Shown here in pieces: positions 28,115 through 29,276 of a stretch of 36,398 nt of DNA (positions are counted from its first letter, which is position 1; every line of letters begins with the position of its first letter). Under the pieces are notes generated by a model. It was given only the letters and a program-made list of their open reading frames with translations. It was not told the DNA's origin and searched no databases. Source of the stretch: Myxococcales bacterium. Its GTDB lineage: Bacteria; Myxococcota; Myxococcia; Myxococcales; Myxococcaceae. A program made the translations under genes and the position numbers. The DNA is taken from assembly GCA_038248085.1 (NCBI GenBank), contig JBBRUE010000001.1:1-36398 (forward strand). Direction: 5' to 3'.

Positions 28115-28540
28115 ATGTCCGCCAACGTCGTCGTTCAGGGCACCAAGGGTTTCGGTTCATTCGGCGGTGCCACCATCGCCATCGAGCGTGGTGGTGGTCT
28201 CGGCGGCTTCGGCGCGGCTGCGCCTGTGAAGGTGGACGACGCCGTCTACTCGAACTGGGACTACAACCAGTCGAACGCGTGGGACGCCGCGACGCCTGTC
28301 GTGAAGGCGCAGTTCGCGGAGGCGATGAAGCTCCGCATGCCCATCAACGTCGCGATGCTCGGCGTGGGCATCGGCGCGCTCGCCATGGGCCCCAAGCCCG
28401 CGAAGGTCGTTGGCGGCATCGTGGCGACGCTCGGCGCGGTCTGGCTGGCCATCTCCGGCAAGTTCGGCCCGGGTGAAGGACCCTTCAAGTGGGAAGACGA
28501 CACCGCGTGGAAGTCGGTCGCGGCTGGCTGGTCGAAGTGA
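28115..28540 (+). CDS. membrane protein, paralog 1 of the MSA(N/R)V...G(L/F)G(G/S)FG family (141 aa)
   Basis: N-terminus MSANVVVQGTKGFGSFGGATIAIERGGGLGGFG. Two TM segments (INVAMLGVGIGALAMG, VVGGIVATLGAVWLAISG). Confidence 0.8.
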   Translation: MSANVVVQGTKGFGSFGGATIAIERGGGLGGFGAAAPVKVDDAVYSNWDYNQSNAWDAATPVVKAQFAEAMKLRMPINVAMLGVGIGALAMGPKPAKVVGGIVATLGAVWLAISGKFGPGEGPFKWEDDTAWKSVAAGWSK

Positions 28541-28797
28541 GCGCCAACGTCTTCGTCCAGCACAGCAAAGGGCTCGGCGGCTTCGGTGCTGCCGACGGCT
28601 TCGTGCCCCCGATGCAGCAGCAGCCATCAGCGTGGACTCCGCTGACCAATGCAGGCGCTGACGTGGCCTCGTTGCTTGTGGGGACCTCCAACAGCTTTCC
28701 CTTCGAGTCCGGGCTCATGGGTTTTTCGTACCTGAAGGTCGCAGCGTGGATCGTGGCGATCGGAACGGGTGTGCATTTCTGGAGGAAGAACCGATGA
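28537..28797 (+). CDS. membrane protein, paralog 2 (86 aa)
   Basis: GTG with GTGA overlap. VSANVFVQHSKGLGGFGAADGF... C-terminal TM LKVAAWIVAIGTGVHFWRKNR. Confidence 0.7.
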   Translation: MSANVFVQHSKGLGGFGAADGFVPPMQQQPSAWTPLTNAGADVASLLVGTSNSFPFESGLMGFSYLKVAAWIVAIGTGVHFWRKNR

Positions 28798-29276
28798 GCG
28801 CTCGCGTCACCATTCAGCCCAGTCGTGGTCTCGGCGGTTTCGGGGACGACATTCTGGGCCCGCTGCAGGCTCAGATCGCGCAGGCTCAGTCGTCCATGCC
28901 GACGGCCTCACCGCCCTTCCTCAAGCTGGCCGGTGCAGCCGCGCTGGCTCTCGGCGCGCTGCAGCTCTTCCGGGGCAAGCGGACCGTGGGCTACGGCCTG
29001 CTGGGTGTCGGAGCTGCGGTCGCAGGCTACGCCTTCACGCGTCCTGCGCAGGCGCTGGTGCCGGACGCTCCGCCGTGGCATCCGTCTTCCGGTGACCTCA
29101 TCGATCCGTTCGCGACCGGCGGCGTGGTGAACCTCGACGCCAAGGCGGCGGGGCTCAACGTGGCCAAGACCACCACCTCGATGCTGGCGACCTCCTCGAT
29201 GAAGCTCCCCGGCGGTCCGCGTCCGGTCTTCGACCCCGCTGCGGACCCCGCTGCGGCTCCGCCCTATTTCGCGTAA
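28794..29276 (+). CDS. membrane protein, paralog 3 (160 aa)
   Basis: ATGA overlap. MSARVTIQPSRGLGGFGDDILGP... Two TM segments (FLKLAGAAALALGALQLF, GYGLLGVGAAVAGYAF). Confidence 0.8.
   Translation: MSARVTIQPSRGLGGFGDDILGPLQAQIAQAQSSMPTASPPFLKLAGAAALALGALQLFRGKRTVGYGLLGVGAAVAGYAFTRPAQALVPDAPPWHPSSGDLIDPFATGGVVNLDAKAAGLNVAKTTTSMLATSSMKLPGGPRPVFDPAADPAAAPPYFA

Follow-up and report, generated by a model that had tools for sequence, protein, structure and literature searches.

Three consecutive genes for small membrane proteins, here named P1, P2 and P3, occupy positions 28115 to 29276 of JBBRUE010000001.1, a metagenomic contig of 36,398 bp and 65% GC that was analyzed over its whole length and is referred to below as the window. 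Their products begin with nearly the same 17 residues and cannot be aligned beyond them. This peptide, which we call the tag, is a real element that is conserved at the level of the peptide, sits at protein termini in variable copy number, is carried by non-homologous cargo proteins and is specific to a single virus lineage. We tentatively favor the view that it serves as a virion-targeting and capsid-docking signal on variable cargo; the strand conformation of the tag, its binding partner and its targeting function are what we infer from the observations described below.

The tag in proteins P1, P2 and P3

The initial annotation had described three consecutive, translationally coupled genes, an arrangement borne out by the start-to-stop overlaps GTGA and ATGA (Table 1; gene starts are as called in this analysis). 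AGGAG/GGAGGA sequences lie upstream of the P1 and P3 starts, and the third-position GC of the three genes (0.79-0.87) is like that of neighboring genes. Pairwise BLASTP comparisons gave 13/19 identical residues for P1 and P2 (E = 9e-6), 16/29 for P2 and P3 (E = 4e-7) and 9/17 for P1 and P3 (E = 5e-4), with the similarity limited to residues 1-17(19) and nothing aligning past residue ~19, so that the reported N-terminus of about 17 shared residues followed by divergence is confirmed. The N-terminus of P3 also matches residues 19-33 of P1 (E = 0.015), from which it follows that P1 holds the tag unit twice. Residues that are identical between two proteins are frequently encoded by different codons (7/12, 4/9 and 6/12 in the P1-P3 pairs), for instance serine by TCC in one gene and AGC in another. 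Conservation thus acts on the peptide, and the similarity is neither a DNA or RNA signal nor the trace of a recent gene conversion.

The tag consists of two parts. The first is a strand-like segment, x-A-x-V-x-[IV]-[QE], of which only the alternate residues A, V and I are conserved while the intervening positions vary. The second is a Gly-rich turn of 3-4 residues ending in phi-x-G-phi-G, where phi stands for L, F, I or M; we refer to this ending as the Gly motif. Beyond the tag the proteins differ in length and in transmembrane (TM) layout, as the initial annotation had also reported, hydropathy giving two TM helices in P1, one in P2, and one clear and one probable in P3. In P1, two tandem N-terminal units and a soluble stretch of ~40 residues precede a TM hairpin (~73-91 and ~96-114), and F-K-W-E forms a C-terminal motif; P2 has the tag, a single C-terminal TM helix and a basic tail (RKNR); and P3 has the tag, a TM helix at ~41-59, the sequence RGKR, a probable Gly-rich TM helix at ~62-80 and a 75-aa Pro/Ala-rich tail.

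To call these proteins paralogs, as had been done, goes further than the data, since the 17-residue tag is all that aligns and no homologue is detectable for any of the three. A search of 5.8 billion proteins with P1 found only P1 itself, scans of P1-P3 against Pfam, PHROGs and NCBIfam gave no match, and BLASTP (E < 1e-3) found no counterpart of P1-P3 in 66 related loci, even where the putative major capsid protein MCP1 is 78-81% identical. The proposal of a short terminal module in place of a shared fold agrees with both the restriction of the P1-P3 alignment to the tag and the selection at the peptide level.

Specificity and distribution of the tag

An exact regular expression of the GLGGFG type had no match in the relatives, which indicates that the tag is conserved as a pattern and not as a string; hidden Markov models (HMMs) were therefore used instead. 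In a search of all 10,820 six-frame open reading frames of the window and the 66 related loci with a 16-column HMM of the unit, every match of at least 8 bits lay at a protein terminus and on the coding strand; the top score on the wrong strand was 7.6. A start-anchored N-terminal HMM, run on 23,855 peptides from every start codon in six frames, retrieved 12 proteins with at least 14 bits, all of them small TM proteins on the coding strand that carry the tag from residue 2 (best decoy, 10.2). Finally, 1.84 billion representative proteins were screened at E <= 1e-3 with a 35-position profile of the double unit, which gave only 26 matches, mostly the C-termini of orthologues of a further window protein, here called X, and of X-like proteins. 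The worry, raised at the outset, that the motif might be common in unrelated proteins is thereby dispelled. The large matches of this search (P0162, P0165, P0169, P0174 and P0176) were set aside as spurious, being unrelated tandem-repeat proteins. The tag profile had only chance matches in the PDB (E > 0.6) and none in Pfam, PHROG or NCBIfam, and neither curated families nor solved structures include the tag, P1-P3, X or the capsid candidates.

The 66 related loci were collected through MCP1 and have a conserved gene order; a homologue of MCP1 is present in all 66, of X in 35, of the second capsid candidate MCP2 in 32 and of a transglutaminase-like protein in 26. Among them, small TM proteins that cannot otherwise be aligned with P1-P3 carry the tag from residue 2 onward: L003_16201 (MTAPIFIQNDSRFAGFG); four proteins of L006, namely L006_13378 (two units, like P1, MAAPLLIEASNRFAGATVSIEPTGRGLSGFGD), L006_13707, L006_14663 (MGPIFIAPSSRFGGLG) and L006_15151 (MSVFIESSSPFAGLG); L010_8024 (MAAPVFIDTPPRFGFLG); L012_13496 and L012_16585; and L028_18222. 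At 38-43% MCP1 identity the tags have diverged, to MTLRIQTLSGLG and MGIRVTSLSGF in L009 and to MDFVATLSGFGGFG in L040. The architecture of P1, with one or more tags, a TM hairpin and a PWE motif, recurs in L006_13378, in L010_8024 and in P0177, a P1-like protein of 146 aa from the library of 1.84 billion proteins, in which 3-4 tandem N-terminal units (MAAPITIESSGLRG ANVVIEGHGLSG ANVVIESRGLSGLG and so on) precede the TM hairpin and LPWE; these tandem units imply that the copy number of the tag grows by tandem duplication. In P0170 the TM hairpin is followed by a double unit, and L003_16201 carries one unit before its TM hairpin, at the N-terminus, and two after it, at the C-terminus. Since the units of L003_16201 flank the hairpin, both ends of that protein must lie on the same side of the membrane. 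Altogether, a protein carries from 1 to 4 copies of the tag, and a genome 6-7 units spread over several proteins.

The genes of P1-P3 lie in a slot of variable content, bounded by the orthologues of g27667 and g29287. It is free of tag genes in L001, L005, L013, L017, L019 and L021; L010 and L012 have a single one there, L006 has two, and the window has three. This count of 0-3, together with cargo that has no detectable homologues, identifies P1-P3 as an accessory, fast-evolving cassette of which the tag is the only constant. We also point out that the soluble 59-aa protein at 29287-29466 is always found within the membrane-protein gene block, directly after the variable P1-P3 slot.

Protein X

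Protein X is encoded ahead of the capsid candidates and ends in ...FSGATVAIEQPGFSGATVAIESNRNFAGALQ, with two tandem tag units at its C-terminus. In ~30 loci the end of X reads ...MF[NS]GATVAIE-x3-4-[FL]SGATVAIE-x4-FAGAL and forms the best-conserved part of the X family. MAFFT aligns residues 13-31 of P1 (FGSFGGATIAIERGGGLGG) to the first X unit. It had been noticed in the initial annotation that GGATIAIE in P1 echoes the C-terminus of X; this alignment upholds the link, which proved central to the analysis.

An AlphaFold2 (AF2) model of X, built from a 33-sequence alignment, is helical over residues 1-120, with a predicted local distance difference test score (pLDDT) of 80-93, and falls below a pLDDT of 50 over residues 125-194. 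In the model the N-terminal helical bundle is probably membrane-associated, and the double unit appears as low-confidence coil and not as the hairpin that had been hoped for. A tail that is conserved yet disordered on its own is what is expected of a peptide that folds on a partner.

A Gly motif across the structural module

The structural region runs from X through MCP1 and MCP2 to about 12 small proteins that extend as far as position 32552. The second part of the tag, in the form [LFIM]-x-G-[LFIM]-G, is found in 9/12 proteins of this structural module, an enrichment of ~10-fold, and this recurrence in most of the membrane proteins of the module was missed by the initial annotation. In the non-TM parts of the module 10 instances were observed against 0.7 expected (z = 10), a number reached by 0/500 shuffles. 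Comparable excesses over shuffled sequences were obtained in the related loci L003 (8 observed, 0.6 expected), L005 (6 and 0.6), L006 (12 and 0.9) and L008 (7 and 0.4). The motif is not enriched in the 21 non-structural proteins of the window (3 observed, 1.3 expected), nor is it in L009. The 43 instances collected over five genomes have the consensus [G/R]-[LF]-[ASG]-G-[LF]-G-[ADN], and 38 of the 43 are located between the N-terminus and the TM anchor (median relative position, 0.29). Within orthologous families the motif stays in place while its flanks drift.

Note also that the VanY-type peptidase encoded at 22309-23025 has an N-terminal TM helix and ends in ...MLSGLSGLRR; this outermost C-terminal sequence nearly copies the Gly motif. 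The further idea that all structural-module proteins start with the strand unit was dropped as unsupported by a shuffle test: a loose regular expression gave 10/50 against 4.8 expected, a result driven by P1-P3, and only 0-2 per related genome.

Genomic and viral context

The contig appears to be a piece of a tailless virus that contains a membrane and has a jelly-roll capsid, a reading based on the fold class of MCP1, the FtsK/HerA-type ATPase, the order of the genes, and the recovery of sequences from viral and 0.1-um fractions. The AF2 model of MCP1 is a beta-sandwich with a pLDDT of 85, and its best matches in PDB and BFVD, all of them weak, are jelly-roll capsid proteins (SPV1, SH1, P23-77 VP17 and circovirus-like capsids), including SPV1 6oj0_A (E = 4.8e-3; TM-scores 0.39/0.47) and SH1 6qt9_g. 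MCP2 has no family match in the profile scans, and its putative capsid role is suggested by its position. In the block 25994-32552 tail anchoring is nearly universal: a long N-terminal part leads into a single C-terminal TM helix, after which the protein closes with a short basic tail such as ...KKRSKA, ...KGMKK or ...LKMKR. If the N-terminal parts face the capsid, these basic tails would face the DNA. The TM helices of the block often start with [LIV]-P-x-[WY].

Table 1. Positions of the features discussed, in their order along the window.
Feature	Position	Strand	Remarks
Primase/helicase-like gene	3737-4957	-	
FtsK/HerA-type ATPase	7110-7928		DUF87/HerA, E = 6.6e-10; phrog_2666 'head and packaging', E = 1e-18
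Transglutaminase-fold Cys enzyme	18846..19622	+	Transglut_core, E = 6e-11; intact C/H/D triad; N-terminal hydrophobic segments
Protein X, 194 aa	23830..24414	+	Just upstream of the putative capsid genes; 47 homologues
phi-x-G-phi-G in X	24232..24246	+	LAGLG, inside the conserved stretch NPLGxGLAGLG
Two tandem tag units at X C-terminus	24313..24411	+	GMFSGATVAIEQPG / FSGATVAIESNRNFAGALQ
Putative major capsid protein 1 (MCP1), 223 aa	24537..25208	+	Candidate tag-binding partner; 105 unnamed metagenomic homologues
Putative second capsid protein (MCP2), 184 aa	25429..25983	+	Adjoins MCP1 in 32 loci
Tail-anchored protein	25994..26821	+	FSGFG at residues 4-8, LSGLG internally
P1, 141 aa	28115..28540	+	ATG start, AGGAG upstream
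P1 tag unit 1	28115..28165	+	MSANVVVQGTKGFGSFG, residues 1-17; 19.5 bits (16-column HMM), 26.5 bits (start-anchored HMM)
P1 tag unit 2	28166..28213	+	GATIAIERGGGLGGFG, residues 18-33, of the GATVAIE type as at the X C-terminus; 17.5 bits (16-column HMM)
P2, 86 aa	28537..28797	+	GTG start inside GTGA, overlapping the P1 stop
P2 tag	28537-28587	+	(M)SANVFVQHSKGLGGFG; 25.5 bits (16-column HMM), 32.6 bits (start-anchored HMM)
P3, 160 aa	28794..29276	+	ATG start inside ATGA, overlapping the P2 stop
P3 tag	28794-28844	+	MSARVTIQPSRGLGGFG; 22.1 bits (16-column HMM), 27.9 bits (start-anchored HMM)
Soluble 59-aa protein	29287-29466		Ends in C-x-C (...PPGSCNC); conserved in 15 related loci
Tail-anchored protein	29477..30295	+	LRGIG; orthologues have R-[FL]-[AS]-G-L-G at the same place
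Tail-anchored protein	30300..31130	+	GGLAGLRGIGSFG; motif LRGIG
Tail-anchored protein	31728..32099	+	N-proximal strand-like unit PRVAVETRG, and KALAGLGD
Tail-anchored protein	32109..32552	+	SRGLGD...MMISGLGA

The lineage comprises more than 100 capsid homologues on contigs, the longest of 108 kb, that come from metagenomes of groundwater and other sources, and no description of it was found in the literature. MCP1 had no tblastn match in 50,697 phage GenBank records, the ATPase had a single weak match in the same records (an unclassified record, 27% identity), and searches of IMG/VR with MCP1 and with P3 found no relatives. Representative genomes yielded two matching contigs only, both in doubtful bins of metagenome-assembled genomes (Paceibacterota and Salinibacterium). 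A bacterial host is indicated by the presence of VanY and PG_binding_1 domains. Four related contigs, L008 (91 kb), L009 (61 kb), L012 (85 kb) and L013 (108 kb), far exceed known sphaerolipovirus genomes and carry, close to the structural module, genes of sugar metabolism (UDP-glucose dehydrogenase, glycosyltransferases and an epimerase) as well as genes for Cpn10 and an integrase, which suggests that they are large virus genomes or proviruses.

Besides the ATPase, the window encodes an SNF2 helicase, a RadC-JAB protein, a transglutaminase-fold Cys enzyme, a GP88-family protein and the VanY peptidase. Two very large proteins, at 8330-11878 (1182 aa) and 14198-16591 (797 aa), have no family match; the second is Ala/Pro/Glu-rich and of low complexity, is kept in 12 loci and has a GFGGF segment. 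At 3479-3701 a 69-nt direct repeat occurs three times (two copies 100% identical, the third 70%) in the only low-GC (57%) intergenic stretch, beside the primase/helicase-like gene, and these repeats may be iterons or a replication origin. A direct repeat of ~95 nt (97% identical over 72 nt) lies at the right contig end, at 35836-35928 and 36294-36385, its copies 458 nt apart; neither a terminal inverted repeat nor an end overlap was seen at the contig ends.

Function of the tag

If the tag is a targeting and docking signal, as we tentatively favor, it would be unstructured alone and would bind a conserved component of the virion by adding a strand to it; the likeliest candidates are the membrane-facing base of the jelly-roll capsomers and X itself. 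Such binding would recruit unrelated, fast-evolving and dispensable small membrane proteins, P1-P3 in the window, into the viral membrane patch and tether them beneath the capsid; tandem copies of the tag (1-4) may provide multivalency, and the Gly-phi-Gly part may belong to the same docking surface or be a later clipping site (phi-x-G-phi|G). This reading is supported by analogies with the targeting sequence of T4 internal proteins, with the shared N-termini of P5 and P31 of PRD1 and with the proteins beneath the capsomers and pentons of HCIV-1 and HHIV-2, which are compared below.

Several points weigh against targeting and docking. We infer, and do not observe, both the presence of P1-P3 in the virion and the binding of the tag; the strand conformation is read from the alternating pattern only, and AF2 gives coil; and the strict five-residue Gly motif fits a protease site equally well. 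The capsid identity of MCP1 is based on weak fold matches (TM-scores 0.39-0.47, E > 1e-3 against the PDB), and the virus has no isolate, its sole matches in genome collections being the doubtful bins mentioned above. In addition, the loose strand pattern is not significantly enriched at other structural N-termini once P1-P3 are set aside, which means that the tag is not a universal address for virion membrane proteins.

The most serious alternative, which we nevertheless consider unlikely, is that the element is a processing site or propeptide: a maturation protease would cut at phi-x-G-phi-G and thereby remove the first 12-17 residues of P1-P3 and the C-terminal tag piece of X, a scheme compatible with prior targeting. 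The phage T4 targeting sequence, too, is removed by a protease. A motif with two invariant Gly and two hydrophobic positions that recurs, ~10-fold enriched, through 9/12 structural-module proteins, in exposed, non-TM and mostly N-terminal regions, is consistent with such cutting, and its form is that of the adenovirus protease sites IVGL|G of pVI and QRGF|G of pTP (PMC4246237). An enzyme could be at hand in the transglutaminase-fold protein, a core gene of 26 loci with an intact Cys-His-Asp triad (GDCDDY...WDHIY...TLDCS). It is, next to MCP1, the gene that persists in the most distant relatives (L009, L040, L047, L051, L052 and L058 included), and it is the only, speculative, candidate protease for the Gly motif. 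However, its only sequence neighbor in the PDB is the pseudomurein cell-wall isopeptidase PeiW, at a weak E = 0.33, accompanied by a weak Peptidase_C71 match, and this likeness points to cell-wall hydrolysis rather than to maturation. Pfam scans detected no clan-CE protease (Peptidase_C5/C57/C63/C48; adenain, Ulp1) or other recognizable maturation protease among the window proteins, even at permissive thresholds (E <= 1 for unannotated proteins), and we know of no maturation protease in prokaryotic internal-membrane viruses. Moreover, the strand upstream is conserved as strongly as the motif and would be left unexplained by a bare cleavage site, and L009 keeps its tags without enrichment of the motif.

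Mutual pairing of the strands of X, P1, P2 and P3 in a beta-sheet or solenoid, which would build a membrane complex such as a vertex or a device for genome delivery, strikes us as improbable. Such hetero-oligomerization would suit the 1-4 tandem units borne by several proteins per genome (6-7 in all) and the disorder of the X tail alone, and the spurious matches P0169 and P0174 have GATVAVE-like segments in long tandem arrays, as fits a strand-forming repeat. On the other hand, L001, L005 and L013 keep the double unit of X with no tagged small protein in the slot or above the detection cut-off (L005_17409, outside the P1-P3 slot, has a recognizable tag below it), a pattern that leaves X without consistent tagged partners. 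Nor was covariation seen between X and the N-terminal units, X staying GATVAIE while the N-terminal tags vary.

We give still less credence to the proposal that the tag is the substrate signal of a virus-encoded sorting system, in which the transglutaminase-fold enzyme would either clip membrane-anchored precursors, like adenain with a different fold, or transfer them in sortase-like manner to capsid or cell-wall-like acceptors. If transglutaminase-driven sorting or maturation were true, it would account for the way in which an internal-membrane virus chooses and fixes the proteome of its membrane. Cross-linking by this enzyme of a conserved Gln in the tag was considered and rejected, as relatives have Glu, Asp or Ala there. 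The RadC-JAB protein, which the initial annotation had proposed to model together with these proteins, was likewise rejected as a partner of the tag, since it is present in only 3/66 loci and is not conserved with the tag.

A classical leader of the Sec, Tat, lipoprotein, prepilin or double-glycine bacteriocin type is very improbable. The tag is short and N-terminal, its K/R-G-[LF] is superficially prepilin-like, and GG occurs in the three window copies. However, it has no hydrophobic core (mean Kyte-Doolittle values over residues 1-19 of 0.45, 0.41 and -0.32, with the TM helices far downstream), no RR and no Cys, LAGLG being lipobox-like but Cys-less; K/R-G-[LF] is followed by G-G/S-F-G and polar sequence, with neither a hydrophobic helix nor Glu+5; and GG is not kept in relatives (RFAGLG, RFGFLG, SGLG). 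Pfam scans of the window found no C39 peptidase, ABC exporter or prepilin peptidase, and no N-terminal leader model explains the unit at the C-terminus of X. Of the leader, sorting signal or processing site among which the initial annotation had left the choice, the classical leader is thus excluded, and sorting or docking is favored over processing.

Finally, chance or low complexity, the residue of a recent tandem duplication, or a DNA or RNA element at the coupled starts can be dismissed as scarcely credible, for, even if the proteins are Gly/Ala-rich in a genome of 65% GC and a DNA repeat finder calls the segment a direct repeat (68-78% identical), identical residues are encoded by different codons, non-adjacent Ser codons included, the tag stands at residue 2 in genomes with 38-81% capsid identity whose tagged proteins are otherwise unalignable, and decoy frames, shuffles (0/500) and the 26 matches among 1.84e9 proteins all speak against it.

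Comparison with known systems

The capsid-targeting sequence (CTS) of phage T4 binds the scaffolding core inside the HK97-fold prohead and is removed by the gp21 protease. This short conserved N-terminal peptide directs diverse, dispensable internal proteins into the assembling particle (PMC3012670). As in IPI, IPII and IPIII of T4, a short N-terminal peptide is the only element common to diverse, dispensable proteins here. The two peptides differ in that there is no sequence similarity between them, the tag proteins have no PHROG or Pfam match, and the putative capsid is jelly-roll-like and not of the HK97 fold; moreover, the cargo in the present lineage is membrane-anchored, the virus is apparently tailless with an internal membrane, the tag is also used at C-termini and in tandem, and targeting is here a proposal. 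If the analogy is true, the principle of a conserved address on variable cargo would not be confined to tailed phages but would also hold for a lineage with a jelly-roll capsid and a membrane, and the tag could serve to load proteins into such particles.

Adenovirus protease sites have the form (M/L/I)-X-G-X|G or (M/L/I)-X-G-G|X, for example IVGL|G and QRGF|G (PMC4246237). The Gly motif resembles the adenain sites of pVI, pVIII, pIIIa and pTP both in form and in being spread over many structural proteins of one virus, and in adenovirus the clipped ends of pVI stay functional peptides. In contrast to adenovirus, no clan-CE protease was found in the window, a bacterial host is indicated, the conserved upstream strand has no adenoviral counterpart, and cleavage is putative. 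Were the Gly motif to act as a cleavage site, prokaryotic viruses with this architecture would gain their first example of a maturation-protease system.

PRD1's spike protein P5 and its penton protein P31 share a conserved N-terminus that is thought to reach the same vertex binding site (PMC5850374), and thus are, like the tagged proteins, otherwise different structural proteins with a common N-terminal segment. P5 and P31 differ from them in being soluble vertex proteins with folded N-terminal domains, whereas a 12-17-residue tag on membrane proteins is found here, and no sequence similarity exists. In HCIV-1 and HHIV-2, which are vertical single beta-barrel viruses, the tail-anchored proteins VP10 and VP13 and the membrane-proximal GPS-II and GPS-III lie beneath capsomers and pentons and position them, and main-chain contacts between strands lock the subunits together (PMC6414509). 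These viruses resemble the present lineage in a gene order in which a membrane protein adjoins two capsid genes and a series of small membrane proteins comes next; they differ from it in that no sequence relationship was detected, the MCP1 fold is only weakly similar to those of SH1 and P23-77, and the paper on them (PMC6414509) describes no shared terminal tag. As for membership of a Sphaerolipoviridae-like group, the FtsK/HerA-type packaging ATPase is present in the window, and the searches of the phage records with MCP1 and the ATPase revealed no sequence similarity to known members.

In chaperone-usher pili, the N-terminal extension of a pilin completes the beta-sheet of its partner by donor-strand exchange. 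The tag resembles such extensions in being a short terminal segment, common to otherwise diverged proteins, with alternating conserved hydrophobic residues (here A-x-V-x-[IV]) and a conserved Gly; this is an analogy of mechanism only, system and fold being entirely different.

That virion proteins may have a terminal address or processing peptide in common is a known concept; the sequence of the tag, its use in tandem and at both N- and C-termini, the membrane proteins that form its cargo and the lineage itself are new. How internal-membrane viruses of the PRD1-like and sphaerolipovirus-like kinds select viral membrane proteins out of the host's membrane and keep them beneath the capsid is poorly understood, and the tag provides a testable handle on this question.

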